From Bacillota bacterium (GTDB lineage Bacteria; Bacillota; Halanaerobiia; B1SED10-174), in assembly GCA_007122335.1 (NCBI GenBank), contig SKTZ01000029.1, positions 5,593 through 69,592 of the forward strand: DNA of 64,000 nt, given 5' to 3'. Positions within the stretch are counted from its first letter, which is position 1. Every line of letters starts with the position of its first letter. The notes below the pieces were generated by a model. The model did not search any database, was not told where the DNA came from, and was given only the letters and a program-made list of their open reading frames with translations. Positions 32,716 to 54,863 of this stretch are shown piece after piece. The translations under genes were made by a program, and so were the position numbers.

Positions 32716-32718
32716 ACC

Positions 32719-33396
32719 ATGAGTATTACAATTGCTAACTTTTTTAGTAATTTTGCTGAGATCTATGGTCCGATTTTTTCGGAACGAATTCCTCCCCTTT
32801 TAATTCAGCATATTCAACTGGTTTTTCTGGCCACGGGAATTGCAATTTTAATTGGGGTTCCTCTGGGTATTTTCCTAACCCGACCTGCGCTGCGCAAACA
32901 CAGCCAGAAGGTTCTTAATTTTGTTAACATAGGGCAGGCAGTCCCGGGTTTGGCCCTGATCGCGATATTCCTGCCTATTCTGGGGATAGGTTATATTCCT
33001 GCTGTTGTTGCACTGGTTATTTACGGACTCCTGCCAATTGTTCGTAATACAATAGCCGGGCTTGAAGCAGTAGATGATAAAGTTAAAGAAGCCGCCCGGG
33101 GAATGGGGATGTATAATAACCAGGTTTTATGGCAAATTGAATTTCCCCTTGCTTTCCCTGTTATTATGGCTGGAATAAAAACTTCTGCGGTAATAACCGT
33201 TGGAACTGCAACCCTGGCTGCCCTGATCGGGGGAGGCGGATTGGGAAGATTGATTTTTACTGGGATCTCCCTTTTCCGCCCTGAATTTATTCTTGCCGGT
33301 TCAGGTACTGCTGCTGTTTTGGCCATAATAATGGAAAAAGGCTTGAGTTTTTTTGAAAGGGTGGTGGTAAAAGAGCGAATGCCGCTGGACTTCTAA
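32719..33396 (+). CDS. ABC transporter permease (OpuCD-like)
   Basis: Second permease paralog of the operon. Confidence 0.75.
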   Translation: MSITIANFFSNFAEIYGPIFSERIPPLLIQHIQLVFLATGIAILIGVPLGIFLTRPALRKHSQKVLNFVNIGQAVPGLALIAIFLPILGIGYIPAVVALVIYGLLPIVRNTIAGLEAVDDKVKEAARGMGMYNNQVLWQIEFPLAFPVIMAGIKTSAVITVGTATLAALIGGGGLGRLIFTGISLFRPEFILAGSGTAAVLAIIMEKGLSFFERVVVKERMPLDF

Positions 33397-33447
33397 AAGA
33401 AGTGCTAACCAGGCAATTAGTTCCAAAAAAATGAGGAGGTTTGATTC

Positions 33448-35826: not shown

Positions 35827-36318
35827 ATGGCAAAAACTATTGAGCAGGAAAACTACCGCGAAAAAGTGGAAGAAATTGTGGCTTTTTTCCCTGAAAAAAA
35901 AGGAGCATTAATACCAGCCCTACAGGCGATCCAAAAGGAATTTGGTTACCTGCCACGTCCCGCTCTGGAGGTTCTTTCAGGATCCTTGCGAATGCCTCTG
36001 AGCACAATTTTTGGAGTGGCTACTTTTTATGCCCAGTTTCATTTGCAGCCCAGAGGTAAACATATTGTCCGGGTTTGTATGGGCACTGCCTGCCACGTTC
36101 GAGGAGGCCAAAAACTTCTGGCGACCCTGGAAAATGAACTTGGAGTTGAGGCAGGGGGAACCACTGAAGATCTGAATTTCACCCTGGAGGAAGTAGCCTG
36201 TATTGGAGCGTGTGGTCTTGCTCCAGCAGTTATGGTAGACGATGAAACATACGGCAGATTGACCTCTGACAAATTAACCGAAGTCCTTGACCAGTACCGG
36301 AAGGGAAAGGAGGGATAA
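35827..36318 (+). CDS. NuoE/HydC/HoxE-family [2Fe-2S] thioredoxin-like ferredoxin subunit
   Basis: Four-Cys pattern (CMGTAC...C..C in VCMGTACHVRG...ACIGACGLAPA) of the 24-kDa subunit family. Confidence 0.8.
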   Translation: MAKTIEQENYREKVEEIVAFFPEKKGALIPALQAIQKEFGYLPRPALEVLSGSLRMPLSTIFGVATFYAQFHLQPRGKHIVRVCMGTACHVRGGQKLLATLENELGVEAGGTTEDLNFTLEEVACIGACGLAPAVMVDDETYGRLTSDKLTEVLDQYRKGKEG

Positions 36319-38091: not shown

Positions 38092-40779
38092 ATGGCGGAA
38101 ATCAGCGTTAAGATCAATGGGCAGGAAGTACAAATTGAAAAAGGAAAAACATTGCTTCAGGCTTGTGAAGAACTTGGTATAGATGTTCCAACACTGTGTT
38201 ATCATCCGCGGGTTGCAATTGAAGGAGCCTGCAGACTTTGCATGGTTGAGGACAAGAAATCAGGACAATTGATTGCTTCCTGTACTCTGGAAGCAGATGA
38301 TGGGATGGAAATAGAGACGGAATCCCCCCGGGTTGTTGAAGCCCGAAAACTGGTTTTGGATTTGCTCCTAGCCTCTCATGATGTTGATTGTTTTGCCTGT
38401 GAGAGAAATGGAGATTGCCGGCTTCAGGATTACTCCTACCGTTATGGAATTGAAAGAACGGCTTTTCCGGGAGAGCGGAGGGAGTTCCCTATTGATAACC
38501 AGAACCCTTTCTTTGAAAGGGATTATAACCGTTGTATCCAGTGCGGATTGTGTGTAAGGGCCTGTCACGAGATTCCCCAGGCCGGGGCCATTGATTTTGC
38601 CAACCGGGGTTTTTCCTCTGAGATAGCAACACCTTTCAATGTTCCCCTGGAGGATTCGACCTGTGTTTTTTGCGGGATGTGTGTGGAATTATGCCCGGTT
38701 GGTGCCCTGGTGCCCCGTTTGGACCGTTTCACCGGTAGGCCCTGGGAGATAGAAAAAGTAAGAACCACCTGTGCTTACTGTGGCGTGGGTTGTCAGATTG
38801 AATTGAATGTTAACGAGGACCGGGTTGTAGGGATCAGTGGCTATGGGGAAAGCGAACCCAATTATGGGGATTTATGTGTTAAAGGTAAATTCGGCTGGGA
38901 CTATATTCACCACCCCGAAAGACTAACCGCTCCCTTGGTCCGGAAGGAAGGCAAGCTTGTTCCAACCAGCTGGGAGGAAGCCCTCGATTATACCGCCCGA
39001 AAATTTAAGGAAATTAAGGAGGAACACGGTGGAGATGCTCTGGGAGGATTGACTTCAGCCAAGTGTACCAACGAAGAAAACTATCTTTTCCAGAAATTTG
39101 TTCGCGCTGCACTGGCAACCCATAATGTTGACCACTGTGCTCGCCTATGACACTCTGCTACAGTAGCCGGTCTGGCTACAGCATTTGGTAGTGGAGCAAT
39201 GACTAACTCTGTTGCGGAAATTGAAAAGGCTCCAGTTATCTTCATCATTGGATCCAACACTACAGAAGCCCATCCTGTAATTAGTTACCGGGTTAAAAAG
39301 GCCGCCCGGGAAGGCAGCAAGATTATTGTCGCCGATCCAAGACGGATTGAACTGGCTGAATATGCTGATATCTGGATGCAGCACCGACCCGGGACCGACG
39401 TAGCCCTGCTGAACGGGCTGATCCACATTATTTTGAAGGAAAACCTTTGGGATCGAAAATTTGTAGAGGAACGAACCGAGGGTTTTTCGGAATTAGAAAA
39501 AGCCGTTTCTAAATTTACTCCGGAATTAGTAAGCCAAATTACTGGTGTTCCAACAGAGCAATTAACAGAAGCTGCCCGCATTTATTCCACCGCTGACGCA
39601 GCTTCAATTCTCTACGCCATGGGGATCACCCAGCACGTTTCTGGGACCGATAATGTTCTGACTCTGGCCAATCTGGCCATGCTGACCGGAAATTTGGGTA
39701 AACCGAATGCAGGTGTAAACCCGCTTCGAGGACAGAACAATGTCCAGGGAGCCTGTGATATGGGTGGATTACCCAATGTGTATCCGGGTTATCAAAAAGT
39801 TGATGACCCCGCAGTCGCAGCAAAATTTGCCGAAAGCTGGGGAAATGTACCCGGAAATGAACCGGGCCTTACAATGATGGAAATGATGGAAGCGGCTGAA
39901 AAGGGAGATATTAAAGCACTGTATATTATGGGTGAAAACCCGGTGCTGAGCGAGCCGGATAGTACCCACAGTAAGGAAAATCTTTCTGCTCTTGATTTCC
40001 TTGTTGTGCAAGATATTTTCCTCAGCGAAACTGCGGAACTGGCTGATGTGGTTTTACCGGGTGTTTCGTTCGCCGAGAAGGAAGGAACTTTTACCAATAC
40101 CGAACGAAGGGTTCAAAGGGTAAGGCAGGGAATCCGGCCTCTGGAAGGAGCCATGGGTGACTGGAAAATTACCCTGGAACTGGCCAAACGAATGGGGTAT
40201 GACTGGAAGTACAATTCCCCTGAAGAAATATTTAATGAGATGGCAGCTTTAACACCTTCATATGCTGGTATTGATTATGACCGGATTGAAAAACAAGGCC
40301 TGCAGTGGCCCTGTCCCGACAAAAATCACCCGGGAACAAGGTACCTGCATCAAGGGAAATTCCCCAGGGGGAAAGGAAAGTTCCACGGGATAGACTTTAT
40401 TCCGCCCGCGGAACTTCCTGACGAAGAATATCCCTTCCTGCTCACCACCGGCCGCAAACTAACCCACTACCACACGGGAACCTTGAGTCGGAGAAGTTCA
40501 GGTCTTTCCACCATAGATCCCGAAGAAATGGTGGAGATCAATCCCAAAGATGCAGAAGCACTCGGACTGGAGGAGGGGGATAAAATGTTAATTGCCTCCC
40601 GCCGGGGAGAGGTGACAGCTCGGGCCAAACCAACCGAAAGAGTTCCGGAAAAAATGATCTTTATGACCTTCCATTTCAGTGAATCTGCTGCAAATGTTCT
40701 TACCAACCCTGTATTGGATCCTGTAGCTAAAATACCGGAGTTTAAGGTTTGTGGTGTAAAAATAAAAAAAGATGAATAA
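38092..40779 (+). CDS. fdhA: NAD-linked formate dehydrogenase catalytic (alpha) subunit, selenocysteine-containing (in-frame TGA 39148-39150)
   Basis: Track ORFs 38092..39150 and 39199..40779 are one frame. N-terminal [2Fe-2S]/[4Fe-4S] NuoG-like domain, then HNVDHCARL-[TGA][20 protein letters not shown]. This matches the conserved Sec/Cys-His active site of molybdopterin FDHs. The remainder is a molybdopterin oxidoreductase domain. Confidence 0.85.
39156..39185 (+). promoter_or_regulatory. SECIS-like stem-loop for the fdhA selenocysteine
   Basis: GTAGCC-GGTCT-GGCTAC hairpin (39163-39179). It starts 13 nt after the TGA and has a GGUC-containing apical loop, as in enterobacterial fdhF SECIS elements. 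Confidence 0.5.
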
Positions 40780-40783
40780 AAAA

Positions 40784-40811
40784 AGGAGGGGATTTATCCC
40801 CTCCTTTTTTG
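40784..40811 (+). terminator. rho-independent terminator
   Basis: AAGGAGGGG-ATTTAT-CCCCTCCTT hairpin followed by TTTTTT. Confidence 0.8.
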
Positions 40812-41024: not shown

Positions 41025-41061
41025 AGTAAGAGGACTGTTGTGGCTAACGGAGGTTTTACTT

Positions 41062-41553
41062 ATGTTTTTTTCCAAGGATGTCCTGGGAATGACAATAATT
41101 TTATATATTTTCTGGCTCCTTATTTCCTGGAGTTTACACTGGGTTAACCTTTTGCTGGGCTTTACCTTTGCTTTTTTTGTGGCCATCTTTATGGCCCCGG
41201 AAATCATAAAAAAAGAGGAAAGGCCGCCGTTTATTGCCCGAGGATTTTTTTTCCTGCGGTTTGTGTTTATTTTAATAAGGGAGATAATCAAAGCCAACAT
41301 CCAGGTTGTGCAGATTGTCCTCAGTCCCAAACTCAATATAACCCCCCAGTTTGTTGAAGTTAAGCAGGTCATGAGGTACCCGGTAACCCAGGTTTTGTGG
41401 GGCAACTCCATCACGCTAACACCGGGGACTTTAACCATAGATGTTGACGATAAAAAAATCCTGATTCATTTTTTAACCGGGGACCTTGTTTCTCACTTCC
41501 CCGATAACCCCGTTGGTAAAGCACTGGTCGAATTCGAGGGGAGATCAAAATGA
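41062..41553 (+). CDS. mrpE: Mrp antiporter subunit E (MnhE/MbhA-like)
   Basis: Family pattern of MnhE. ATG 41062 after GGAGG. Confidence 0.7.
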   Translation: MFFSKDVLGMTIILYIFWLLISWSLHWVNLLLGFTFAFFVAIFMAPEIIKKEERPPFIARGFFFLRFVFILIREIIKANIQVVQIVLSPKLNITPQFVEVKQVMRYPVTQVLWGNSITLTPGTLTIDVDDKKILIHFLTGDLVSHFPDNPVGKALVEFEGRSK

Positions 41554-41813
41554 TTGAAACTGCCTTTTTGGTGGCTGCTATTCTCCTGATGGTGAATGTT
41601 ATATTTTGCCTTTATCGGGCAGCAGTTGGTCCTACTCCGGGAGACCGGGTTGTCGCTATTAATATGATTACAAGTAAGACCATTGCGGTTATGGCCCTGG
41701 TTTCTTTTATGTACCATGAAGAACTGTTTCTTGATGTTGCAATTACTTATACCCTGATCGGTTATACAGCGACCATTTGTGTGGCTAAATACCTGGAATT
41801 GAAGAGGTTATAG
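41550..41813 (+). CDS. mrpF: Mrp antiporter subunit F (MnhF/PhaF)
   Basis: 87 aa, three TM helices. Start overlaps the mrpE stop (ATGA). Confidence 0.7.
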   Translation: MIETAFLVAAILLMVNVIFCLYRAAVGPTPGDRVVAINMITSKTIAVMALVSFMYHEELFLDVAITYTLIGYTATICVAKYLELKRL

Positions 41814-41825
41814 GAGGAGCAAGAA

Positions 41826-42146
41826 ATGCGGGAAATAATTGTAATGCTGTTTTTATTCACCGGTGTCTTCTTTTTTACAGTGGGAACAATCGGGGTTTTG
41901 CGCCTTCCCGATGTTTTTTGCCGCCTCCATGCCAATACAAAAAGTGATACCCTTGGTGTTGGTTTGGTCCTTTCTTCTTTAGTGCTTTATGAAGGACTTT
42001 CTTCAGCGGGAGTTAAAATAGTATTTATGATAATTTTTATCTTGATAACCAACCCCACTGCAGGCCATATTATTGCCCGAGCTTCTTATGATACAATTGT
42101 GGATTGGACCGGGCAGCTGGCCCGGCAAAAGGGTGGTGAGGAATAG
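41826..42146 (+). CDS. mrpG: Mrp antiporter subunit G (MnhG)
   Basis: 106 aa, MnhG-like pattern (VLRLPDVFCRLHANTKSDTLG). Confidence 0.7.
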   Translation: MREIIVMLFLFTGVFFFTVGTIGVLRLPDVFCRLHANTKSDTLGVGLVLSSLVLYEGLSSAGVKIVFMIIFILITNPTAGHIIARASYDTIVDWTGQLARQKGGEE

Positions 42147-42382
42147 TGGCGATCTTAGATCTCCTTTTATTGAGTATTCTTGTTCTCTGTGCTTTGGCCG
42201 CGGTTCGAACCCGGGATCTTCTTGGGGCAGTAATAATATATGCCGCTTATAGTCTTTTGATGGCAATTATCTGGCTACAACTGGGCTCACCTGATGTTGC
42301 GATTACGGAGGCTGCACTGGGAGCTGGAGTTACTACCATACTTATGATTGCCACCATTAGTAAGACGGGGAGGTATGAATGA
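42146..42382 (+). CDS. DUF4040-type membrane subunit (N-terminal MrpB/MbhD-like)
   Basis: 78 aa, two TM helices, GTG start overlapping the upstream stop. Position and size match MbhD-type split MrpB subunits. Confidence 0.55.
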   Translation: MAILDLLLLSILVLCALAAVRTRDLLGAVIIYAAYSLLMAIIWLQLGSPDVAITEAALGAGVTTILMIATISKTGRYE

Positions 42383-42735
42383 TGCGTCAAATTATCCCTT
42401 TTTTCTTAACCCTGGTCCTGGGAGCTGCTCTGCTACTGGTGGTCGCCGAAATGCCTCCGTTTGGGGATATAAATAACCCCGCTCATAATGTAGTTAGCGA
42501 ACGCTACCTGAATCAGGGAGTTCGGGAAACCGGAGCACAGAATATTGTCACTGCTATAATCACGGACTACCGTGCCTATGATACTCTGGGAGAGGTCACG
42601 GTTTTGTTTGCTGCTATTGCTGCAGTGCTTACTGTTTTAAACAGGTTGCGCTTGGGAGTAATCTGTCCTGAAGACAGGGAAAGGGGACTGACAGATGAGG
42701 ATGCAGGAGATCCTGATACTGAAGATAGTTGTTAG
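42379..42735 (+). CDS. MnhB-domain subunit (MrpB/MbhE-like)
   Basis: NIVTAIITDYRAYDTLGEVTVLF matches the MnhB signature. Confidence 0.6.
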   Translation: MMRQIIPFFLTLVLGAALLLVVAEMPPFGDINNPAHNVVSERYLNQGVRETGAQNIVTAIITDYRAYDTLGEVTVLFAAIAAVLTVLNRLRLGVICPEDRERGLTDEDAGDPDTEDSC

Positions 42736-43126
42736 ATTTGTTATTCCCTTTATCCAGGTCTATGGATTTTATGTAATTACTGCTGGACATCTTAGTCCTG
42801 GTGGTGGTTTTGCCGGGGGAACAATTGTTGCTGCCAGCATGGTTTTATATGCCCTGACTTTTGATGCTTCCCAGGGTCTTGAAAAACTCTCCCATGAAAG
42901 AGCATCCCTGTTTGAGAGTCTGGGAGCTATCTGGTATGTTGCCCTTGGTTTTTTGGGAATCCTTGTCGGAGGTAATTTCCTTACAAATGGGCAGATTGGA
43001 ATTCCTCTTGGCACACCGGGCTACCTGATAAGTGGGGGTTTGATTCCCCTTCTTTCTTTTGGGATTGGAATAAAAGTCGCAGTTACCGTTGTCAGCCTTT
43101 ATTATTCGCTGGTTGAGGAGGATTAG
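42695..43126 (+). CDS. MrpB C-terminal-like subunit (MbhF-like)
   Basis: GHLSPGGGFAGG motif typical of the MrpB second half. Start may be ATG 42701. Confidence 0.55.
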   Translation: MRMQEILILKIVVRFVIPFIQVYGFYVITAGHLSPGGGFAGGTIVAASMVLYALTFDASQGLEKLSHERASLFESLGAIWYVALGFLGILVGGNFLTNGQIGIPLGTPGYLISGGLIPLLSFGIGIKVAVTVVSLYYSLVEED

Positions 43127-43128
43127 TT

Positions 43129-43506
43129 ATGGCCGAAGCCCTTGCAGCCCTGGGCCAGAATTATTTCTTTTATTATGCTCTTATTCTTTTTATGGTTGGA
43201 TTTTATACCACACTGAGCCATTCAAATATTTTAAAAAAAATCATTGGGATCAATATAATGGAAACCTCAATATTCCTATTTTTTGTTGCCCTTGGTTATG
43301 TTGAGGGTGGGCAGGCTCCAATAATGGGTAGAGGAGCCGAAGGAGGGCCTTATATGAATCCCCTGCCCTCGGCCTTGATTCTTACTGGAATTGTTGTATC
43401 GGTAAGTATTACGGCTTTTGCCCTGGCTTTGATGGTTAAACTTTATCATTTTTATGGAACCCTTGACGCTGATGAAATTGTTATGCTGCGAGGAGAAAGA
43501 CAATGA
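43129..43506 (+). CDS. mrpC: Mrp antiporter subunit C (NuoK/MnhC-like)
   Basis: 125 aa, three TM helices, NuoK-like. Confidence 0.7.
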   Translation: MAEALAALGQNYFFYYALILFMVGFYTTLSHSNILKKIIGINIMETSIFLFFVALGYVEGGQAPIMGRGAEGGPYMNPLPSALILTGIVVSVSITAFALALMVKLYHFYGTLDADEIVMLRGERQ

Positions 43507-44993
43507 TATATCAGCTACCTGTTCTAATTGTGGTCCAACTTCTTTTGGGTTCTTTTCTTATGCCCATTGTGGGGAGGATTCGCAATCAGCTAATCCCCCA
43601 TATTTCGCTGTTTTTAATGGGTCTCGCCAATGTTTTCTCTATAATTTTACTTTTCCGGGTTGTCCGGGAAGGAAACATTCACTACCACCTTGGAAACTGG
43701 GCACCTCCCTGGGGCATTGAAATTGTTGCAGACCTTTTAGGTGCCTACATGGCAGTTATTATTACGGGAATAAGCTTTTTGGTCCTGGTTTTTGCCTGGC
43801 GGGATATTCAGAGAGAAATAAATTACGCCCTCAGGGGCTGGTTTTATACCCTGGTCCTACTGATTTCCGGGGCAATGGTAGGAATGGTTTTAACCAATGA
43901 TTTGTTCAATCTTTATGTTATGGTTGAAATCGTATCCCTTTGTGGTCCCGCCCTTGTGGCTATCCGGAACAACCGGCTTGCTGTGGAAGCAGGCTTTAAA
44001 TATCTGGTAATGATTGCTCTTGGTTCGGGCCCGATTCTTTTCGGGATTGCTCTAATTTATATGATTACCGGCCATTTGAACATGACTTTCGCCGGCCAGG
44101 AAGTATTAAATGTAATTCATGAATATCCCAGAGTTGCTCTTTTAGCCCAGGCCTTTTTCATCGTAGGTTTTGGGGTTAAGGCGGCCCTTTTTCCCCTGCA
44201 TGTCTGGCTCCCAGATGCTTATACTTCCGCACCTTCCCCCTCAAGTGCTCTTCTGGCCGGACTTGCGGCAAAAGTATATATAGTTGGTTTGACCCGGGTC
44301 CTTTTCAATCTTTATGGAATTGACGTACTTGCTACCACACCGCTTTTTACCATTCTCAAAGTAATGGCGGTGGCAGGGATTATCATGGGTTCAATAATGG
44401 CTCTAAACCAGAAAGATATAAAAAGGTTGGTGGCCTATTCAAGTGTTGCTCAAATTGGGTACATATTCCTGGGGCTTAGCCTGGCTACAGGGTTTAGTGT
44501 AACCGGGGCTATTCTCCACATTTTGAATCATGCCTTAATAAAGTCAATGATGTTTCTCTGCTGTGGAGTAATTATTTACCAGAAAAAAACCAGCAATGTG
44601 GATGAACTGGGGGGAGTGGGGAAGGAATTTCCCATAACCATGATTTGCTTTGGTATTGGTGCTTTTGCCATGGTTGGTATTCCCATGCTCAATGGTTTCA
44701 TTAGCAAATGGTATATCAGCCTGGGAGCCCTGGAATATGGGGGTCTGGCTGGTTTAATGTATTTGCTTGTGATTATTATCAGCAGCCTTTTAAATGGTCT
44801 TTATTATCTACCGGTATTAATTAAAGCCTTTTTGGGTGGGGATTCCCAAAAAGAAACTGTTTTTGATAAAGCACCAATTACTTTGATATTGCCAATTGTA
44901 ATTTTGGCTGCAGGTATAATTATTCTGGGGTTATTACCCTTTGTTCCGCTGCAAATTGCTGCAGACGCGGCCCAGCACTTGTTGGGCCAGTAA
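43503..44993 (+). CDS. mrpD: Mrp antiporter subunit D (NuoN/NuoM-like proton-conducting membrane transporter)
   Basis: 496 aa, ~14 TM. Conserved antiporter-like motifs (GFGVKAALFPLHVWLPDAYTSAPSPSSAL). Confidence 0.8.
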   Translation: MIYQLPVLIVVQLLLGSFLMPIVGRIRNQLIPHISLFLMGLANVFSIILLFRVVREGNIHYHLGNWAPPWGIEIVADLLGAYMAVIITGISFLVLVFAWRDIQREINYALRGWFYTLVLLISGAMVGMVLTNDLFNLYVMVEIVSLCGPALVAIRNNRLAVEAGFKYLVMIALGSGPILFGIALIYMITGHLNMTFAGQEVLNVIHEYPRVALLAQAFFIVGFGVKAALFPLHVWLPDAYTSAPSPSSALLAGLAAKVYIVGLTRVLFNLYGIDVLATTPLFTILKVMAVAGIIMGSIMALNQKDIKRLVAYSSVAQIGYIFLGLSLATGFSVTGAILHILNHALIKSMMFLCCGVIIYQKKTSNVDELGGVGKEFPITMICFGIGAFAMVGIPMLNGFISKWYISLGALEYGGLAGLMYLLVIIISSLLNGLYYLPVLIKAFLGGDSQKETVFDKAPITLILPIVILAAGIIILGLLPFVPLQIAADAAQHLLGQ

Positions 44994-45028
44994 AAAACAC
45001 TATGAATTAACAGGAGGAGGCAACCGGG

Positions 45029-46525
45029 ATGGTACAGGGAGTAGAAACGCATTCGCATTTACCGGGATTGGTCGTATTAATTCCAATAATTTTTACTGCA
45101 TTGGTAGGGATTTTCCAGAAAAGGTCATTTTTGCTCCGCAACTGGCTTTTTATTAGCGGCGCGGCAATTACCTTTGCTGGAATGGCTTTGATGGGCTATT
45201 ATGTCCTGCAGGGAAGAATACTGGTTATCAACTATCTTGTGGCCATGTTTCCGTTTACCATTACATTCAGAGTGGATACCCTAAGTTTTCTTATTGGGGT
45301 TGTTGCTGCAGGAGTATGGCTATTGGCTTCAATATATTGCTTGCAGTACATGAAAGATGACCATGCTCCCAACCGTTATTTCCCGGTTCATATTTTTACC
45401 CTGGCTGGTTCGCTAGGGGTATTTCTTGCGGGGAACCTCTATACTTTTTTCCTCTTTTATGAGGTAATGGCTTTTTCCGGTTACTTATTTGTTATCCATG
45501 CTGAAACTCCAGAAGCTTTTAAAGCTGGATCCAGGTACCTGATGGTAACCATCCTGAGTGGTATCCTGGTTTTCACTGGGGTTATTATTACCTATCAGCT
45601 GGCAGGAACTCTTGACCTGGGTTCTTTAGGAATCATTCCCGAGGCCAATGTTGTCTCCCTGATCGCCTTTGTGGCTTTTATAATTGGTTTTGGTTTTAAG
45701 GCGGGTCTTTTTCCGCTGCATACCTGGTTGCCTGCTGCTCACCCGGTTGCGCCGTCTCCAGCGAGTGCTTTGCTTTCTGGGATTTTGATCAAAACTGGAG
45801 CTTACGGAATAATCCGGGTAACCTATAACGTTTACGGGATCGAGATGATGCGGGATACTGGCTGGCCCACTATTCTGCTGATTTTCGCTGCGATTACCAC
45901 TCTTTACGGATCCATGGCTGCTCTGGTTCAGGATAATCTTAAAAGACGTCTCGCTTATTCAAGTATCAGTCAGATCGGATATATACTTATGGGGGGAGCC
46001 CTTCTTACCGAGCGTGGCCTGGCTGGTGATGTTTTTCACATTGTCAGTCATGCGACAATCAAAAGCACCTTGTTTTTAACTGCAGGGGCAATTATTACCA
46101 AGACGGGGATTAAATATGTAAGCCAGATGGCAGGAGTGGGGCGAAAAATGCCCTATACCATGGGGGCTTTTACCCTTGCTGCACTGGCTATGATCGGGAT
46201 TCCACCTTTAAATGGTTTTGTTAGTAAATGGGCCCTGGCCCTGGGTGCTTTAGATGCTGGCCAGCCAGGCTATGCGGTTGTTCTTTTAATCAGTAGTATG
46301 TTGAACGCCCTGTACTATTTACCAATTGTAATTCTTGCTTATTTCCGCAAACCGGAAGAAGGGACAGTTCTTTATGGAGATATGTTGCGTTACGATGAAG
46401 CCAGGGCGAGTATGCTTGTGCCAATTTTAATTCTGGCTCTGAGTTTGGTCATATTCAATATCCTACCTGTTAACCTGCCACTGGTTCTGGCCGAATTCTC
46501 CGCACGGGCCCTTTTCCAGCACTAG
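45029..46525 (+). CDS. second MrpD/NuoM-like antiporter subunit
   Basis: 498 aa paralog (GFGFKAGLFPLHTWLPAAHPVAPSPASALLS). Confidence 0.8.
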   Translation: MVQGVETHSHLPGLVVLIPIIFTALVGIFQKRSFLLRNWLFISGAAITFAGMALMGYYVLQGRILVINYLVAMFPFTITFRVDTLSFLIGVVAAGVWLLASIYCLQYMKDDHAPNRYFPVHIFTLAGSLGVFLAGNLYTFFLFYEVMAFSGYLFVIHAETPEAFKAGSRYLMVTILSGILVFTGVIITYQLAGTLDLGSLGIIPEANVVSLIAFVAFIIGFGFKAGLFPLHTWLPAAHPVAPSPASALLSGILIKTGAYGIIRVTYNVYGIEMMRDTGWPTILLIFAAITTLYGSMAALVQDNLKRRLAYSSISQIGYILMGGALLTERGLAGDVFHIVSHATIKSTLFLTAGAIITKTGIKYVSQMAGVGRKMPYTMGAFTLAALAMIGIPPLNGFVSKWALALGALDAGQPGYAVVLLISSMLNALYYLPIVILAYFRKPEEGTVLYGDMLRYDEARASMLVPILILALSLVIFNILPVNLPLVLAEFSARALFQH

Positions 46526-46541
46526 GAAGGATGTAGATATA

Positions 46542-48956
46542 ATGGTTAATGCAATCGGGCCGAGCATGCAAAACGCGTTGCTTGTAACCGCGATATTTGC
46601 TCCCCTTCTGGCCGCTGGAGCCCTGTTTAAAGTAAGGGTTTTTAAAACGGCACACAAAATTGCTCTTGTGGCAATTGGGCTTGCTGTTGGGGCGTTAGTT
46701 GCTGTTGTTGGGGAGCCGATAGAATTTATCTGGGAAGGTTTCCTCGGGGTAAGATTTGTCCTTGCTCCTGATTACATGGGGATTTTCCTTGCCATTATGG
46801 CCCTTGTTTTATGGTTTCTTTATACTCTTTTTAGCCTTGATTTTATGCAGAGAAGCCATAATTCAATTCGTTTTCTTTTCTTTTCCCTGCTTTCCCTGAC
46901 TGGAACCCTTGGTGTTTTTCTTGCAGGGGATCTTTTTACAATGTTTGTCTTCTTTGAATTTATGGCCTTTGCCTCTTTTCCCCTGGTTATCCATGAGGAG
47001 ACTGAAGAGGCTCACCGGGCGGGCAAACAGTACCTTTATATTGGAGTGCTGGGAGGCCTGACTATTTTGCTGGGCCTTTTTCTGCTGTACCATCGCCTGG
47101 GAACTCTTGTATACAGTGAACTGGGAGGAGCACTGGCTGGTGGGTCCCCGGTGGATATAATAATTATCGCTGGTCTGCTGCTCGGGTTTGCCATAAAGGC
47201 GGGCCTGGTTCCAGTCCACTTCTGGGTACCCCAGGGTTATGTTGCCGCCCCGGCACCTGGTAGCGCAATCCTTTCTGCCGTTCTTAAAAAATGTGGAGTT
47301 TTTGGGATTATCCGTTTGCTCTTTTTAATGGCTCCGATGTTAACTTTCGGGCAGGTAATACTTGGTTTTGGTTTATTAACAATGGTTTTGGGATCGCTAC
47401 TGGCCTTTTTTGAGCATAACGGGAAAAGAATACTTGCTTACAGCAGTGTAAGCCAGGCGGGTTATATTATGGTAGGGTTCGGCGGAGGCGCGATAATGGC
47501 TGAAACTGGAGTAATGGGAGGTCTTGGTTCTTTTTTCCACGTTCTCAACCATGCTCTCTTCAAAGGAAGCCTATTTTTAGCTTTGGGTTATACTTTTCTG
47601 CGAACCCGGGAATTCAATATTTATCGCCTGGGTAACCTCTGGAAGAAGATGCCCTTTACAACCATTTTAGCAGTTGTTTCTGCAGCCGGGCTAATGGGAT
47701 TACCTCTTTTTAACGGTTATCCCAGCAAAACAATGATTCACCACGCCATTACTTTCGCCGAAAGTGAAACTCAAATGGCGATATACGGATATGCTGAAAC
47801 CCTTTTTAATATTGGTGCCGCAGGGACCACTGCTTATTGCATCAAGCTGATTTATAATGTTTTCTTCGCTCCCCGGGAGCCTGAGTTTACAGGGGAAAAA
47901 GAAAAACCCCTGGTTCAGGGGATATTTATGGTTTTAATTGTAGCCATGCTTTTTATCGGGCTGTTTCCAACTCTGACCATGGAAACCATTATTTTCCCCG
48001 CTGCAGGTGCTTTTTTCCTGGACCCTGATTTTGTTGATTATAAATTAGGTGGGTACAATTTTTTCAATGCTTATGATCTGCGGGGGGCTTTTAAAATTCT
48101 TTTAATTGGTCTGGGGTTAACCGCTATCAACCTTGTTTTGGTCAAAAAACGAATAGACCTTCCCCGCTGGTTATCAATTGAAAGGCTTGTTTTGAATCCT
48201 TTAATTAAGGCTTTAGGGGCAATTCTTGGTGCTTCATATTATTTTATTAATAATCGGCTAATGGGTTTTGGGACTGGTCTCGTAGAAGGCTATAAAAAAG
48301 GACTTCCCTTTATTAACCACCTGGATGGCTATGTTGATGAAATAGGAAAGAGAACAGATGATCTTTTTGCCGGATTTGTTTTCAAGACCTCGGGTAGCCA
48401 TGACCAGAGAAAGCTGATCAATCTGATTTTAGATTATGGAAAGGAAGAAAAAGAAGAAGCTGAGCTGCATGGGTTCTGGAATTGGTTAACGGGTGAAGGA
48501 ATTTTACAACCAGTTGATAAAGAGAATGTTGATTCCCCCGATTTTATTGGAAGTGTTGAAGATTTCAGCAAAAGAATTCAGGAAATGATGGAAAAAGAAG
48601 AGTTGACGGAAAAAGAGAAAAATCGCGTAGAAAGACTTTTTGCCCGGCTTATGGCTTTAGAAGAAAAGGGCATTTCCCCAAAAAGTATGGAGGAGAAAAG
48701 TTATCCTCATTTGCGGATTATCCAGCGAATGGAAGAGATATTCCAGTACCTTACGGGGAATATACAAACTGTTGACGGGTTGGAAAAAGACCAGGAAAAA
48801 GCCCGGGTAGACAAGAAAAAAATCGAAAAAAAGAAGGAAGCTCTGGATTCCGGCTGGGGCAAGTGGAGCGTGTTGAACCTTAATTTTGACATGATTATCC
48901 TTGCTGTTACTCTGGTAATTGCGGTTATATTGCTGGTATTTTTTGCCCAGATTTAA
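46542..48956 (+). CDS. MrpA/NuoL-like antiporter subunit with ~230-aa hydrophilic helical extension and C-terminal TM anchor
   Basis: N-terminal ~520 aa antiporter core (GFAIKAGLVPVHFWVPQGYVAAPAPGSAILS). Then a charged, coiled-coil-like region (EEKEEAELHGF...KEKNRVERLFARLMALEEKG...). It ends with a single TM (MIILAVTLVIAVILLVFFAQI). Confidence 0.75.
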   Translation: MVNAIGPSMQNALLVTAIFAPLLAAGALFKVRVFKTAHKIALVAIGLAVGALVAVVGEPIEFIWEGFLGVRFVLAPDYMGIFLAIMALVLWFLYTLFSLDFMQRSHNSIRFLFFSLLSLTGTLGVFLAGDLFTMFVFFEFMAFASFPLVIHEETEEAHRAGKQYLYIGVLGGLTILLGLFLLYHRLGTLVYSELGGALAGGSPVDIIIIAGLLLGFAIKAGLVPVHFWVPQGYVAAPAPGSAILSAVLKKCGVFGIIRLLFLMAPMLTFGQVILGFGLLTMVLGSLLAFFEHNGKRILAYSSVSQAGYIMVGFGGGAIMAETGVMGGLGSFFHVLNHALFKGSLFLALGYTFLRTREFNIYRLGNLWKKMPFTTILAVVSAAGLMGLPLFNGYPSKTMIHHAITFAESETQMAIYGYAETLFNIGAAGTTAYCIKLIYNVFFAPREPEFTGEKEKPLVQGIFMVLIVAMLFIGLFPTLTMETIIFPAAGAFFLDPDFVDYKLGGYNFFNAYDLRGAFKILLIGLGLTAINLVLVKKRIDLPRWLSIERLVLNPLIKALGAILGASYYFINNRLMGFGTGLVEGYKKGLPFINHLDGYVDEIGKRTDDLFAGFVFKTSGSHDQRKLINLILDYGKEEKEEAELHGFWNWLTGEGILQPVDKENVDSPDFIGSVEDFSKRIQEMMEKEELTEKEKNRVERLFARLMALEEKGISPKSMEEKSYPHLRIIQRMEEIFQYLTGNIQTVDGLEKDQEKARVDKKKIEKKKEALDSGWGKWSVLNLNFDMIILAVTLVIAVILLVFFAQI

Positions 48957-49437: not shown

Positions 49438-49474
49438 CTCCCCAGGGGGATTGGATTCTCCTGGGAATAAAAAA

Positions 49475-49502
49475 AGCTCCCGTATGAGGGAGCTTTGTTT
49501 TA
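49475..49502 (+). terminator. rho-independent terminator
   Basis: AGCTCCC-GTATGA-GGGAGCT hairpin followed by TTGTTTT. Confidence 0.7.
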
Positions 49503-49504
49503 AG

Positions 49505-49591
49505 TGGTGCCGAAGGTGGGATTCGAACCCACACGAAGGTAACTTCACACGACCCTGAATCGTGCGCGTCTGCCAATTCCGCCACTTCGGC
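49505..49591 (-). tRNA. tRNA-Leu (anticodon CAG)
   Basis: The reverse complement reads GCCGAAG-TG-GCGG...ACGC-CACGA-TTCAGGG-TCGTG-(long variable arm)-GTGGG-TTCGAAT-CCCAC-CTTCGGC-ACCA. It has a 7-bp acceptor stem, a CAG anticodon loop, a long extra arm and an encoded CCA. Confidence 0.85.
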
Positions 49592-49782
49592 TTACACATA
49601 TAATATAAAGTATCGTGGTCTCCTTGTCAAGGAATATCTGGTATTTTTGGCAGGAATAATGTGCTTTATGACGAATTGAAAAAGGTGGGTGTTTAACAGG
49701 AAAGAAAATTATTAGGCAAGTGGGATGGATTGGTTTTGCGAGGATTGAAAAATATTTTTGGTGCGAGGAGGGCAGGTTCTAT

Positions 49783-50232
49783 ATGAGCAAGGATCTGGTC
49801 GCAGAAAAGTCAAACCTTATTAAGGTGTTACAGACGGAGCAAAAGAAGGAAGGTTTTATCTCTGATGCTGCAATAGAGAGAATAGCTGGAGAATTTAACC
49901 TTCCTGTTGTAGAGGTTGAAGGTGTTGTGAGTTTTTATACCCAGTTCAAAAGGGTTCCCCCGGGCAAATACCAGATTATGGTTTGTGATGGGACTGCATG
50001 TCATATTATCGGTTCAACCCTGATCTTGAACTGGCTTACTGACGAACTTGGCATAAAAGACGGGGAGACCGATGAAGAAGGTCTCTTTTCTTTGGAAAGC
50101 GTTGCCTGCCTGGGTTGTTGCAGTTTAGCCCCGGTAATCAGCATTAACGGCAAGGTCTATGGTAAGCTTGATCGCAAAAAACTATTAAAAATTGTAGCAG
50201 ACTTTCGGAAAAAGGAGGCAGCTGGATCATGA
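49783..50232 (+). CDS. NuoE/HydC-family [2Fe-2S] ferredoxin subunit (second copy)
   Basis: VCDGTACHIIG...ACLGCCSLAPV four-Cys pattern. ATG 49783 after GAGGAGGG. Confidence 0.8.
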   Translation: MSKDLVAEKSNLIKVLQTEQKKEGFISDAAIERIAGEFNLPVVEVEGVVSFYTQFKRVPPGKYQIMVCDGTACHIIGSTLILNWLTDELGIKDGETDEEGLFSLESVACLGCCSLAPVISINGKVYGKLDRKKLLKIVADFRKKEAAGS

Positions 50233-51950
50233 TAAAAAGAATTAAAGTGGGGATGGCCAGCTGTGGTATTGCTGCCGGAGCAGGTGAAGTGCTGGAATTA
50301 CTGCAGGAAATGGCCGGAGATAATAAAGTTGTTGAAGTTGGTTGTATCGGACACTGTTATGCTGAACCTCTTGTTGAAGTTGAAACAGATTCCGGGGACT
50401 ATATTTTTGAAAAAGTCCAACCCAAGGAAGAAGACCTGCAGAAGATTATTGACCTGGATGAATTTTCTCGCTTTCAACCCCATTCCCCGCGTGTTGATAA
50501 AGAAAGACAATTGATTACCTCTCTCGCCGGGAAAATTGTTCCCACCTCTCTTGAGGAATACAGGGCTAACAAAGGATACGAGGGCTTGAAAAAAGCTCTG
50601 GAAATGGAACCGGATGCAATTGTTGACGAAGTGAAAACTTCCAAGTTGCGTGGCCGTGGTGGGGGAGGTTTTCCCACGGGATTAAAATGGAGCTTCCTGG
50701 CAGCCAAGGACAGCGAGCAAAAAGTTTTAATTTGCAATGCTGACGAGGGAGATCCGGGGGCTTTCATGGATCGGACTTTAATGGAATCACTTCCCCATCA
50801 GGTTTTGGAAGGAATGTTGATCGGGGCGAAAGCAACTGGTGCCCGCCAATTATTTATTTATTGCCGGGCGGAATATCCCCTGGCAGTAAAAAATTTGAAT
50901 ATTGCGATTGAACAGATTGAAAAAGAAGGCCTTAATATAATCGATGGAGAGCCCGTTAAAATTATGGTTAAAGAAGGAGCGGGGGCATTTGTTTGCGGAG
51001 AAGAAACTGCCCTCATTCACTCCCTTGAAGGGAAGAGAGGGACTCCAAGGTATCGCCCCCCATATCCAACTGACTATGGTTTCCACGGCTATCCCTCGGC
51101 AATAAACAATGTTGAAAGTTTTGCGAATATCCCCCTGATTGTCCGGGATGGAGGGGAAAATTTTGCAGCTACGGGAACCGAGAATAGCACGGGAACAAAA
51201 CTCTTTGCTCTCGCCGGAGACCTGGAGTATTCTGGACTTGTTGAGGTTCCCATGGGAATTTCTATAGGGGAAGTTGTCTACGACATTGGAGGGGCTGAAC
51301 CGGGAAGTGTTAAGGCTGTCCAGATTGGAGGCCCCAGCGGTGGTTGCATTCCTGCGGAACACTTTGATACTCCCATTGACTACGACTCTCTCACTTCCCT
51401 GGGTGCAATTATGGGGTCAGGTGGCTTGATTGTAATTGGAAATAACCGTTGCATGGTTGAAACTGCTCGCTATTTCCTGGAATTTACAACCAGGGAAAGC
51501 TGCGGGAAGTGTACTTTCTGCCGGATCGGAACCAAGCGAATGCTGGAGACTCTGGAAAGAATAACCGGTGGGGAAGGTGGTCCCGAAGATGTAGAGCTCC
51601 TCGCTGATCTGGGTAAGAAAATTATTCAGGGATCCTTGTGTGGGCTCGGTCAAACCGCTCCCAACCCGGTGCTTTCTACCCTCAAATATTTCAATAATGA
51701 ATACCTGGCTCACGTCGAAGAAGGCCATTGTGCGGCCATGGAGTGCAAGGCCCTGGTTGATGTTTTTATCGATAGGGAAACCTGCATTGAATGCGGGCAG
51801 TGTATTAAGAATTGCCCCGTTGATTGTATAAGCGAGGATTACGTGATTGATAATGAAATTTGCACCCGCTGCAACAGCTGTATTGAGGTTTGTCCTGTAG
51901 ATGCCATTGCCCGGGTTGCGAAAGGAGGGGAAGTCAGTGTCGGAAATTAA
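50229..51950 (+). CDS. NuoF/HydB-family NAD(H)-binding flavoprotein with N-terminal [2Fe-2S] and C-terminal 2x[4Fe-4S] domains (second copy)
   Basis: GRGGGGFPTGLKW motif and CxxCxxCxxxCP x2 at the C-terminus. Paralog of 36325..38076. Confidence 0.85.
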   Translation: MIKRIKVGMASCGIAAGAGEVLELLQEMAGDNKVVEVGCIGHCYAEPLVEVETDSGDYIFEKVQPKEEDLQKIIDLDEFSRFQPHSPRVDKERQLITSLAGKIVPTSLEEYRANKGYEGLKKALEMEPDAIVDEVKTSKLRGRGGGGFPTGLKWSFLAAKDSEQKVLICNADEGDPGAFMDRTLMESLPHQVLEGMLIGAKATGARQLFIYCRAEYPLAVKNLNIAIEQIEKEGLNIIDGEPVKIMVKEGAGAFVCGEETALIHSLEGKRGTPRYRPPYPTDYGFHGYPSAINNVESFANIPLIVRDGGENFAATGTENSTGTKLFALAGDLEYSGLVEVPMGISIGEVVYDIGGAEPGSVKAVQIGGPSGGCIPAEHFDTPIDYDSLTSLGAIMGSGGLIVIGNNRCMVETARYFLEFTTRESCGKCTFCRIGTKRMLETLERITGGEGGPEDVELLADLGKKIIQGSLCGLGQTAPNPVLSTLKYFNNEYLAHVEEGHCAAMECKALVDVFIDRETCIECGQCIKNCPVDCISEDYVIDNEICTRCNSCIEVCPVDAIARVAKGGEVSVGN

Positions 51951-53976
51951 ACTGACCATAGACGGAAAACAGATTACAGCCCCCAGAGGGAAGACCATAC
52001 TTGAAGTGGCCAAAGAAAATGGGATAGAAATCCCGACCATGTGTCACGATGATAGAATAAGCCAGACCACCTCCTGCTTTGTTTGTATTGTCCGGGAAGG
52101 GAAGAATGGAAACTGGATGCCCTCCTGCTCTGCAGAAGCCCAGGATGGGATGGAAGTTGATGCATCAAGTGATCTAGTTCGGGATATGCGGAAAACCGCC
52201 CTGGACCTGCTCCTTTCTGAGCATAGCGGAGATTGCGAGGCTCCCTGCACGATTTCCTGTCCCGCCCATGCCCGGGTTGAAGAATACGTGAGAGCAGGAC
52301 GGGACGGTGATTTGCGGAAAACACTGGAAATTGCCAAGGAGCGTATTCCCCTGCCCCTCTCAATTGGAAGGGTTTGTCCGCGGTTTTGTGAAAAGGACTG
52401 CCGGCGTAATGTGTTAGATAATGAAGGTGTTGCCATTAACGATTTCAAACGCATTTCGGCCGACCTTTATTATGATGAATATATGGAGGAACGGAAAGAA
52501 CTGACCGGACAAAAGGTTGCTATTATCGGTTCTGGCCCTGGCGGACTGGCAACTGCCTATTTCCTGAGGTTAGAAGGTGTGGCCTCTGATATTTACGAAA
52601 AATTACCTGAGGCCGGAGGTATGCTCCGTTACGGTATTCCAGAATACCGCTTGCCCAAGAAGGTTTTGGATAAAGAACTGGCTCATTTTGAAAAAATGGG
52701 TGGTATTAAAATATACTGTAATAACGAATTGGGCAAAGACATCCAGCTGGATAAACTCAAAAAAGAATATGATGCAGTTGTGGTAGCTGTTGGTTCCTGG
52801 AAGGCCAGCGGAATGAGAACTGAAGGGGAAGAGCTGGCCAGGGGAGGCATTGACTGGCTGGAAGAGCTGGCCCTTAATGGCTGGAAAGGTGAAGACCCTG
52901 GAGAAACCATAGTTGTAGGTGGTGGAAACACCGCCATGGACTGTGTACGCAGTGCGCTTCGCCTGACTGATGAACCTGTTCACTGTATGTACCGCCGGAC
53001 GGAAAAAGAAATGCCGGCCGAGCAAATTGAGATAGATGAAGCACGGGAGGAAGGTGCCCGGTTTAATTTCCTAACTCAGCCCATTAAACTTCGCAGAGAA
53101 AACGGGAAACTTGTTCTGGAATGCTTGCGGATGGAACTGGGTGAACCAGATGCTTCGGGAAGAAGGCGTCCCGTGCCCATTGAAGGCAGTGAATTTGAAG
53201 TTGCCGCAGATACTGTTATCGCTGCTATCGGACAGAAAACCCTTGCTCCAAAAGGGCTTCCAACTAACAAGTGGGGCGACGTAGATGTTGAAGAAGCTGA
53301 CTGCCGGGCAGAAGGTAATGTTTTTGCTGCAGGTGACTGTGTAAGTGGTCCAGCAACAGTTGTCGAAGCAGTTGCCGGTGGAAGAAGAACTGCCCTGGGA
53401 ATACTGGCCTACCTTAAAGGAGAAGAGTGCCAGCTTCCCCGTCAGATTAATGTCTCGCGCGGACACTGGCAGAGCATGTCCGAAGACGATCTGGTCTACC
53501 TTTTTGAACCCGATAAAAACAAAAGAGTCCCTCTGCGTTTGATACCCCTGGAAGAGAGAACTTCTACCTTTAAAGAAGTTAGTTATACCTTTACCGAAGA
53601 GGAAATTTTGGAAGAAGGAAAACGCTGTATTGAGTGTAGCTGTACTGCCAAAGGAGATTGTAAGCTTAAAGACTTCTCTGAAACCTATGGAGCCCATCCG
53701 GAAACATTTGGTGGAGAGAAAGGAAATAATACCTACAATTCCCGCCATCCCCACATAATAATGGATAACGGAAAATGTGTAAAATGTGGGATTTGTGTAA
53801 AAGTCTGCAGCGAGGTCGTTAACGAATATCTCCTGGGCTTTAAAAACCGGGGCTTTAAAACCAAGGTTGAAACTGCATTTGATACAACCCTTCCTGAATT
53901 CTGCACCGATTGCGGTGAATGTATTGAAGCCTGCCCGGTGGGAGCCCTGGATTGGAAAAAGAAAAAGGACGAATAA
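51937..53976 (+). CDS. GltD/NfnB-like NAD(P)H-dependent FAD oxidoreductase fused between NuoG-type N-terminal [2Fe-2S] and C-terminal His-ligated/[4Fe-4S] cluster domains
   Basis: N-terminal ferredoxin-like [2Fe-2S] region ([22 protein letters not shown]...MCHDD...CFVC). Then the GltD-type two-cluster motif ([10 protein letters not shown]...CPRFCEKDC) and the FAD/NAD(P) Rossmann motif ([15 protein letters not shown]). The C-terminus carries [21 protein letters not shown] and [15 protein letters not shown] 51937 after AAAGGAGGGG. Confidence 0.7.
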
Positions 53977-54014
53977 AAAAAATAACCGCCCGGGAAAACA
54001 AAGGAGGAATTTGC

Positions 54015-54863
54015 ATGTCAAAACTTATTGATGGAAAGCAGATTGCTAAAGAAATCAGGGTAGAATTAAAAAAAGAAGTAGATGCCTTAAAGGAAAAAAC
54101 AGGAAAAGTTCCTGGCCTGGCAGTGGTTCTGGTTGGGGAAGATCCTGCATCAGCAACTTACGTTCGGATGAAGGGAAAAGCCTGCGAAGAAGCAGGATTT
54201 TTGTCCCGCACCCACAGGCTGTCTGAAAACACCACGCAAAAAGAATTGCTGGATTTAGTTAAACAACTCAACGATGATGACGAGATCCATGGAATTCTGG
54301 TTCAATTGCCTCTGCCGGATGGTCTTGACGAACAGGAAGTTCTTTATACAATTGACCCGGAAAAAGACGTGGATGGTTTTCATCCCTTCAATGTTGGCCG
54401 CTTGATGACGGGAGATCCCAGTTTTGTGCCCTGCACTCCTCGTGGTGTAATTGAACTCCTCGACCGGTCGGGAGTTGAAATAAAGGGTAAGAGAGCTGTT
54501 GTAATCGGAAGGAGCAACATTGTTGGGAAACCGGTTGCCCTTTTACTGCTACAGAAGCATGCAACGGTAACCATCTGTCATTCTCGGACCCAGGACCTTC
54601 CCGGAGTAGTGCGGGAGGCAGATATTGTTGTTGCCGCGGTGGGAAGACCAGAAATGGTAAAAGGGGATTGGATTAAAGAAGGTGCAATAGTTATTGATGT
54701 AGGTGTCAACAGGGTTGGCGAGAAAAAACTGGTTGGAGACGTTGCATTTGATGAAGCAAAAGAAGTTGCCAGCCTGATAACTCCTGTCCCCGGTGGGGTT
54801 GGCCCAATGACAATCGCCATGTTATTACAGAACACCCTGGAATCTTTCAAAAACCATGGATAA
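54015..54863 (+). CDS. folD: bifunctional methylenetetrahydrofolate dehydrogenase/methenyl-THF cyclohydrolase
   Basis: [15 protein letters not shown]...[21 protein letters not shown]... is a typical FolD. Confidence 0.9.

Follow-up and report, generated by a model that had tools for sequence, protein, structure and literature searches.

The window analysed here is the whole stretch of 64,000 nucleotides at positions 5,593 to 69,592 (forward strand) of contig SKTZ01000029.1, from assembly GCA_007122335.1 of a Bacillota bacterium (GTDB lineage Bacteria; Bacillota; Halanaerobiia; B1SED10-174), and this report concerns one of its genes, which encodes an antiporter-like membrane subunit of 804 amino acids (aa) with a long linker ahead of its last transmembrane helix (TM). 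All positions are those of the window. The gene, which has a GGAAGGA ribosome-binding site ∼10 nt 5' of its ATG, is the last of ten contiguous plus-strand genes (operon 41038-48956) that together encode all of the Mrp A to G equivalents, the 804-aa protein being the A(N)-like subunit:

41038-41553, plus strand: MrpE (Pfam/NCBIfam)
41550-41813, plus strand: MrpF (Pfam/NCBIfam)
41826-42146, plus strand: MrpG (Pfam/NCBIfam)
42146-42382, plus strand: MbhD/DUF4040-like protein of 78 aa with a GTG start (PF13244, 2.6e-22)
42379-42735, plus strand: MbhE-like protein (Pfam/NCBIfam)
42695-43126, plus strand: MrpB (Pfam/NCBIfam)
43129-43506, plus strand: MrpC (Pfam/NCBIfam)
43503-44993, plus strand: MrpD (Pfam/NCBIfam)
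45029-46525, plus strand: MrpD' (Pfam/NCBIfam)
46542..48956, including the stop codon, plus strand: 804-aa terminal antiporter-like subunit of MrpA-N / NuoL / MbsH' architecture (open reading frame, PF00361, orthologues of 804-833 aa)

The two MrpD paralogues that an earlier, sequence-only reading of this DNA had placed upstream of the gene are thus both present, and the order of the ten genes is identical in the orthologue loci L081 (fully syntenic) and L082 and also in dozens of other loci. The 78-aa MbhD-like open reading frame (ORF) between mrpG and the MbhE-like gene falls below an 80-aa ORF threshold and completes the Mrp subunit set.

PF00361 (Proton_antipo_M) is the sole Pfam match of the 804-aa protein (aa 128-412, 188.5 bits against a cutoff of 21.5, E=2e-55), and its NCBIfam matches (MrpD, NuoM, HyfB, MrpA, and NuoL models) are all below the curated cutoffs and confined to aa 1 to ∼535; neither Pfam nor NCBIfam places any domain in aa 540-804. 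A Kyte-Doolittle scan and the secondary structure of an AlphaFold2 (AF2) model agree on 14 core TM helices extending to ∼aa 491, with TM7 (203-220/225-235) and TM12 (371-385/392-410) broken according to DSSP on the model. The charged axis follows the pattern of Glu in TM5, Lys in TM7, Lys/His in TM8, His/Lys in TM11, and Lys in TM12, and its residues (E139, K219, K250, H333, H337, K341, and K396) do not vary across an alignment of 52 sequences. The best sequence matches in the PDB were MbhH (6CFW_H, 5e-56), MbsH and MbsH' (6U8Y; MbsH' E=3.9e-40), and MrpA (7QRU_A), and a Foldseek search with the whole model returned MrpA chains and NuoL at the top, with TM-scores of 0.81-0.88 against MbhH, NuoM, and MrpD targets. 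The C-terminal extension of L-type subunits is present, with TM15, an amphipathic lateral helix (HL), and TM16, and an insertion of ∼160 aa lies between the HL and TM16. The segments of the protein are as follows, where KD19 is the Kyte-Doolittle score and pLDDT the predicted local distance difference test score of AF2:

46542..48014, plus strand: 14-TM antiporter core, aa 1-491, with discontinuous TM7 and TM12 (AF2 pLDDT ∼85-97, DSSP helices)
48069..48146, plus strand: TM15, aa 510-535, followed by the conserved linker start 'KKRIDLPRWLS' (KD19 = 2.22, AF2 helix, P541 nearly invariant)
48162..48377, plus strand: putative lateral helix proper, aa 541-612, amphipathic and ending in a 'LDGYVDEIG' unit (assigned by analogy with the 75-aa linker of NuoL and the 66-78 aa of relatives)
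48378..48671, plus strand: insertion part A, aa 613-710, a predicted compact module of three short strands and four helices
48672..48863, plus strand: insertion part B, aa 711-774, a conserved amphipathic helix YPHLRIIQRMEEIFQYLTGNIQTV and then a K/E-rich helix leading into TM16 (AF2 helices 722-737 and 747-769, pLDDT <50)
48864..48953, plus strand: TM16 anchor, aa 775-804, with a W..NLNFD motif before it (KD19 = 3.27)

Both the NuoL/MrpA-like nature of the subunit and its NuoL-like arrangement of TM15, lateral helix, and TM16, as first proposed from the letters, are borne out by these results. The same proposal had described a core of ∼520 aa with two more TMs; the 14-TM core stands, but TM15 is the only clear extra TM. 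On the strength of these matches, we predict that the 804-aa protein is a distal NuoL/MbsH'-type antiporter-like subunit of a stand-alone split Mrp of the 'group 3 / anaerobe-type' class, with antiport activity likewise predicted.

Neither the Kyte-Doolittle scan nor AF2 found a TM between aa 535 and 775, and the terminal TM that had been expected after the charged region (775-804) forms the C-terminus. That region had been described as ∼230 aa of highly charged sequence; a TM-free linker of ∼240 aa is indeed there, but its charge is concentrated in the last ∼160 residues, whereas the first 75 are amphipathic. Within aa 616-775, 63 of 160 residues are K, R, D, or E (39%; 28 K/R and 35 D/E), the mean hydropathy is ∼−1, and some of the helices are strongly amphipathic, with a hydrophobic moment (muH) of up to 0.66. 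For aa 541-612, the maximum KD19 is 1.36, muH is 0.35-0.50, and 21% of residues are charged (16/75 for aa 541-615); by analogy, this segment would be the true HL, with a length about that of the HL of NuoL. The linker has K/R clusters at either end (KKRIDLPR after TM15 and KKKIEKKK before TM16), and the TM14-TM15 loop is acidic. Because this charge pattern fits the positive-inside rule, the linker is probably cytoplasmic, as is the HL in solved Mrp structures (PMC9568556, PMC7419157).

A hydrophobic stretch in the linker, aa ∼544-570, could in principle be a true 16th TM, which would make the terminal TM the 17th and put the charged region on the extracytoplasmic side. In hydrophobicity the stretch surpasses the E. 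coli HL (1.36 vs 0.96), and its equivalent exceeds the KD19 threshold of 1.6 in the orthologues P0003, P0005, and P0006. In the window protein, however, its KD19 is under that threshold (real TMs score 2.2-3.3), a Lys lies mid-stretch, and AF2 puts the stretch inside a 42-residue helix, which is too long for a TM. Furthermore, the K/R clusters flanking the linker are consistent with both of its ends being cytoplasmic, the homologous extension of MrpA/NuoL has a cytoplasmic HL (PMC9568556), and the same motif starts the 66-78-aa linkers of relatives. We consider this topology very improbable, having rejected the extra TM on AF2 helix length and KD19, and we take aa 544-570 to be the hydrophobic beginning of the lateral helix.

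The linker had been judged about twice as long as that of NuoL and matched in length to the spanning of the two MrpD paralogues, and neither estimate survived comparison. Measured with the same script, the TM15-TM16 linker of E. coli NuoL is 75 aa, and the window linker is 3.2 times longer. The HL of NuoL braces NuoM and NuoN, joining three antiporter-like subunits, and is the longest among known complexes, in which more antiporter-like subunits go with a longer HL, up to the three of complex I (PMC8165549); the HL extension for one more subunit is ∼26 aa, as given in PMC9040806 from Chadwick et al. 2018. Since three antiporter-like subunits are encoded here as well, and NuoL serves that number with 75 aa, ∼75 aa should suffice, yet 240 are present.

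Among the representative genomes of GTDB, at least 80 loci share this operon architecture, and they span Clostridia, Actinomycetota, Pseudomonadota, Elusimicrobia, and a Methanosarcinales archaeon. For 33 complete operons, we measured the linker from the conserved PxWLS motif to the terminal TM (by this measure the window protein has 227 aa; elsewhere in the text we give ∼240) and sorted the lengths by MrpD count:

One MrpD upstream: linker of 66-69 aa
Two MrpD upstream: linker of 67-231 aa
Three MrpD upstream: linker of 78-301 aa

Linker length is independent of MrpD number. Even among operons with equal numbers of MrpD it varies ∼3- to 4-fold, linkers as short as 78-89 aa occur together with three MrpD, and the operons that encode exactly the subunit set of the window (L014, L018, and L065) have linkers of 67-106 aa. 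Comparing HL lengths across the Mrp and complex I families, as the sequence-only reading had proposed, thus upheld a linker longer than that of NuoL and did not uphold a tie between its length and the MrpD count. The nearest precedents for a lengthened HL are NuoL of the Nitrospira '2M' complex I and MrpD2 of 'Ca. Manganitrophaceae' Complex_I_3, in which an HL insertion is also tied to a changed array of antiporter-like subunits (PMC9040806). Those insertions, however, are placed inside the amphipathic helix and, at ∼26 aa, correspond to one added subunit, whereas the excess over NuoL is here ∼165 aa, charged, non-continuous and partly compact by prediction, and present without any added subunit; it is not a proportional extension of the 2M type. 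In L-type subunits, linker length is therefore not convertible to a number of braced subunits beyond ∼70-90 residues.

Structure prediction gave no continuous helix. In the full-length AF2 model (multiple sequence alignment, MSA, of 52 sequences), eight separate helices lie between TM15 and TM16 (546-587, 595-608, 622-633, 639-651, 672-685, 690-708, 722-737, and 747-769), broken by G/P-containing turns and accounting for 153 of the 240 linker residues. When aa 610-780 were folded alone (8-sequence MSA), aa 610-710 reached a pLDDT of 65-83 with three short strands and four helices, aa 711-780 were of low confidence, and the predicted template modelling score (pTM) was 0.49. With moderate confidence, aa 613-710 are thus probably a small compact module; the insertion returned no informative fold match. 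The earlier description of the charged region as helix-prone is correct in that most residues are predicted helical, but they form eight helices at low pLDDT and not one, and the amphipathic rod that it had preferred to a globular domain is replaced by broken helices and the module at 613-710.

A long rod would nonetheless have some evidence in its favor. If the whole linker of ∼230-240 aa were one extended lateral helix spanning both MrpD subunits as a coupling rod, this would accord with the largely helix-prone sequence, with the scaling of the HL with antiporter-like subunit number in known complexes (PMC8165549, PMC9040806), and with a weak positive trend between length and MrpD count in the related operons. 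But 240 helical residues would extend for ∼360 Å, while 75 aa span two subunits in NuoL and relatives with the identical subunit set use 67-106 aa; the predicted helices are broken, with one part compact; and the charge and mean hydropathy of aa 616-775 make them unsuited to a helix on the membrane surface. Moreover, the works cited as refs 57 and 58 in PMC8165549 are given there as treating the HL as a brace that maintains the assembly and not as a moving piston. A coupling rod is accordingly hardly credible as the architecture of this complex.

Short- and long-linker relatives have in common a W..N[LI].FD motif ahead of TM16 and a TM16 of similar sequence, which suggests that TM16 docks at the same site in all of them and that the excess loops out. 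Across 58 L-type homologues, linker length covers a continuous range of 66-324 aa. In P0011, P0009, P0036, and L003 (5440-7908), the excess consists of 25-residue tandem repeats with the unit (I/L)D..(I/V)DDGY..G, in 3-4 copies per linker (an example in L003 is IRRVRRIDSMIDDGYDQGSQVSTQL). The unit occurs once in the window protein (LDGYVDEIG, aa 594-602), and no internal repeats were found in its linker at 6/12 identity. Judged by these sequences, the HL-TM16 junction has been expanded repeatedly, each time with sequence particular to the lineage, and in split anaerobe-type Mrp it is a hot spot of lineage-specific expansion, from 66 to >320 aa. In the searchable literature, we found no description of such a TM15-TM16 hot spot or of the long insertion.

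The extension is not an annotation artefact, the outcome that would have undone the first description of it: seven orthologue clusters share it, five of 804-807 aa (76-96% identity) and two of 827 and 833 aa (42-45%), the syntenic locus L081 among their loci. A frameshift or fusion artefact was ruled out, as the length is kept in independent assemblies. The nearest assembly is GCA_003551665.1, and the closest GTDB representatives among the matches listed are 29-38% identical. Across the closest five clusters the linker is free of gaps; the insertion is 47-77% identical and the core 82-88%. TM16 is the most conserved segment, at 91-100% in these clusters and still 59-69% in the orthologues of 42-45% overall identity. 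Near-invariant motifs of the insertion are GFWxWLTGEG, DFIGSVEDFSK, and LFARLMALEE, all in part A, and YPHLRIIQRLEEIFQYLTGNIQTV. Relative to P0002, the insertion has a nonsynonymous divergence (dN) of 0.19-0.21, as against 0.078 for the core; synonymous divergence (dS) is saturated (>1.4), which limits dN/dS in this comparison, and P0001 (96% identical) offers too few substitutions. As a dN of ∼0.2 is far under the saturated dS, the insertion is under purifying selection, and its amino acids change ∼2.5 times faster than those of the core.

These data bear on whether the insertion is simply a functionless spacer or semi-disordered linker tolerated at a permissive HL-TM16 site. Such a spacer would fit the continuous range of lengths among relatives, the expansion of the same site by tandem repeats in other lineages, the low pLDDT over much of the region, and the faster amino-acid evolution. 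It would also fit the absence of homologues of the insertion outside its own clade: an exhaustive HMMER search of 1.84 billion representatives returned only the P0002 cluster. However, a spacer would not be expected to keep its length gap-free in the clade down to 76% identity, to retain long near-invariant motifs, or to have a dN so far below dS, and the pLDDT of 65-83 at 610-710 also argues against it. We therefore think a functionless spacer unlikely.

The arrangement that we favor, and regard as reasonably likely, is a normal HL brace to which a clade-specific cytoplasmic accessory module, most plausibly with a structural role, has been added. The complex would have three antiporter-like subunits (MrpD, MrpD', and the 804-aa protein), the last contributing one proton path. 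After the 14-TM core, TM15 would bring the chain back to the cytoplasmic face, and aa 541-612 would form a lateral helix of ordinary length, serving as a brace for MrpD' and MrpD just as that of NuoL does for NuoM and NuoN. TM16 (775-804) would anchor this brace at the junction with the module of small subunits. The ∼160-aa insertion (613-774) would not lengthen the brace but loop out in the cytoplasm just before TM16, as a probably compact module of ∼100 aa, then the conserved amphipathic helix, and then the K/E-rich connector. Constrained by selection and dispensable for spanning, it would most likely be an accessory structural cap near the junction of MrpD and the small subunits.

Several points weigh against this arrangement. 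Linker length and MrpD count are weakly positively correlated (Spearman 0.34, p=0.05), a trend driven by the lower bound. The boundary between HL and insertion was drawn by hydrophobicity and analogy and not from a structure. The pLDDT of the full-length model is low (35-77) for aa 540-804, and the insertion MSA has only 8 sequences, so that the looping out of the insertion is a proposal and the compact fold of 613-710 a prediction; the role of the module is something that we infer. If inserted modules of this kind have a role, be it in stability, oligomerisation, regulation, or docking, they would be a hitherto unrecognised accessory layer on a machine that forms the evolutionary core of complex I; without such a role, they would be a clear case of tolerated expansion at a permissive site.

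A more active role can also be envisaged, in which the insertion is an interaction platform, either for dimerisation or oligomerisation of Mrp or for the docking of a soluble partner or regulator near TM16. The TM16 region corresponds to the place in MBH and MBS at which the membrane anchor of the peripheral arm adjoins the ion-translocation module, and in both complexes the HL with TM15-16 maintains the interface with the peripheral arm (PMC8165549). Purifying selection on the insertion, with invariant hydrophobic motifs on amphipathic helices of muH up to 0.66, would suit a binding surface, and the operon lies between a selenocysteine (Sec) formate dehydrogenase (FDH) with NuoE/F-like genes and a second NuoE/F-like set. 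However, the operon holds no extra partner gene as compared with short-linker relatives, the insertion sequence is clade-specific while other clades have unrelated sequences or repeats at the same site, FDH adjoins the operon in no long-linker locus among the 80 loci listed but only in L018 and L024 (86-aa linkers), and a strong terminator-like hairpin separates fdhA from mrpE:

40779..40810, strand not assigned: palindromic terminator-like hairpin with a 14-bp stem, parting fdhA from the mrp operon (identified from the sequence)

On balance, we think a platform of this kind doubtful. A related reading, in which the module is a docking or regulatory element that recruits a soluble partner to a stand-alone Mrp, or gates or regulates the junction of the H+/Na+ modules, and in which the junction is an 'expansion slot' put to use again and again across Clostridia and other phyla, seems distinctly unlikely to us. 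Were the module to dock a partner, the neighboring NAD-linked selenocysteine formate dehydrogenase with its NuoE/F-type module could be the candidate. Docking of the insertion to this FDH/NuoEF was examined as a candidate function and found unsupported, given that FDH flanks only 2 of the 80 listed loci, both with short linkers, and given the intervening hairpin.

The favored arrangement, an ordinary brace with an added module, is best placed by comparison with known systems. One close system is MbsH' of the Pyrococcus furiosus membrane-bound sulfane reductase MBS (6U8Y, a 618-aa chain), in which the 14-TM core also runs straight into TM15, the HL, and TM16 and no MrpB-like domain is fused; as in the window operon, the MbhD-, MbhE-, MrpB-, and MrpC-like proteins of MBS are separate polypeptides (PMC8165549). 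In contrast, MBS is a redox-driven complex with a peripheral arm, the HL of MbsH' spans two proton paths, and its 618 aa leave room only for a short TM15-TM16 linker, whereas the window protein, encoded in a stand-alone Mrp operon, has the extra ∼160 aa before TM16. NuoL/Nqo12/ND5 share the 16-TM topology and an HL bridging two further antiporter-like subunits, three in total, but they serve a redox-driven pump with NuoH/B/C/D/I and have the much shorter linker. A Pfam scan of ∼26-56 kb of the window found no NuoH/MbhM-like anchor and no NuoB/C/D/I genes in the operon or its flanks.

MrpA of group 1 (Anoxybacillus flavithermus 6Z16 and Bacillus pseudofirmus 7QRU) is likewise a distal subunit whose cytoplasmic HL braces MrpD (PMC7419157, PMC9568556). 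Unlike the window protein, canonical MrpA runs on past TM16 into TM17-21 (DUF4040/MbhD- and MbhE-like), which are here the separate genes at 42146-42735, and lacks a large insertion before TM16; canonical Mrp also has one MrpD in place of two. The window protein ends at TM16 with no fused MrpB-like domain after it, and it reaches no NCBIfam MrpA equivalog cutoff. In gene content, the operon matches mrp clusters of the group 3 / anaerobe type, in which the genes are irregularly ordered, mrpD is duplicated, and several small genes encode the pieces of MrpB and of the MrpA C-terminus (PMC5703873); examples are Natranaerobius thermophilus (three overlapping mrpB), Microbacterium TS-1 (mrpFGBCDDAE), and cyanobacteria (mrpCD1D2EFGAB) (PMC5703873). 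They differ in that a long TM15-TM16 insertion is not described for such clusters in searchable papers.

Other loci with this type of operon depart from the window plan in their own ways. In L002, L012, L022, and L037 (Clostridiaceae, Clostridiales, Tindallia, and Proteiniclasticum), one MrpD is followed by two L-type subunits of ∼680 and 610 aa, each with a ∼30-aa linker before its terminal TM, which suggests serial one-subunit clamps instead of one long brace. In L041 and L077, whose L-type subunits are of 1019 and 997 aa, a ∼3.5-kb gap with unidentified coding sequence lies between the second and third MrpD (∼4.7-9.8 kb).

The genes flanking the window operon encode Sec-FdhA, NuoE/F-like proteins, a GltD-like fusion, FolD, a NUDIX protein, and a betaine ABC transporter. 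FdhA, the catalytic subunit of a molybdopterin formate dehydrogenase (38092-40779, plus strand), is represented by two ORFs of 352 and 526 aa in the same frame with an in-frame TGA at 39148-39150 (context ...HCARL-TGA-HSATVAG...), and its Pfam Molybdopterin domain runs past the TGA, which is most likely a selenocysteine codon within a single FdhA of ∼895 aa. Upstream of it are a NuoE-like gene (35827-36318) and a NuoF-like gene (36325-38076), and directly 3' of it is the hairpin at 40779-40810, which has a perfect stem and A6/T6 flanks and could be a bidirectional terminator. On the other side of the operon, a second NuoE-like gene (170 aa) and NuoF-like gene (573 aa) are followed by a 691-aa GltD/NfnB-like fusion (Fer2_4, Fer4_20, Pyr_redox_2, and a 2x[4Fe-4S] domain) and then by FolD (together 49720-54863, plus strand). 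Taken with Sec-FdhA, this set suggests a neighborhood of Wood-Ljungdahl or formate-linked electron transfer. Another hairpin, with a 9-bp stem (49473-49496), lies between the plus-strand NUDIX gene and a minus-strand tRNA-Leu(CAG) at 49505-49591, and the Mrp operon is thus flanked by terminator-like hairpins on both sides.

Further upstream, at 30889-34359 (plus strand), is an OpuA-type glycine-betaine ABC transporter composed of two permeases, a CBS-domain ATPase, and an OpuAC binding protein. Together with the Mrp operon, this transporter hints at a halophilic or haloalkaliphilic lifestyle. Many of the related long-linker loci come from metagenome-assembled genomes of soda-lake sediment (CSSed16).

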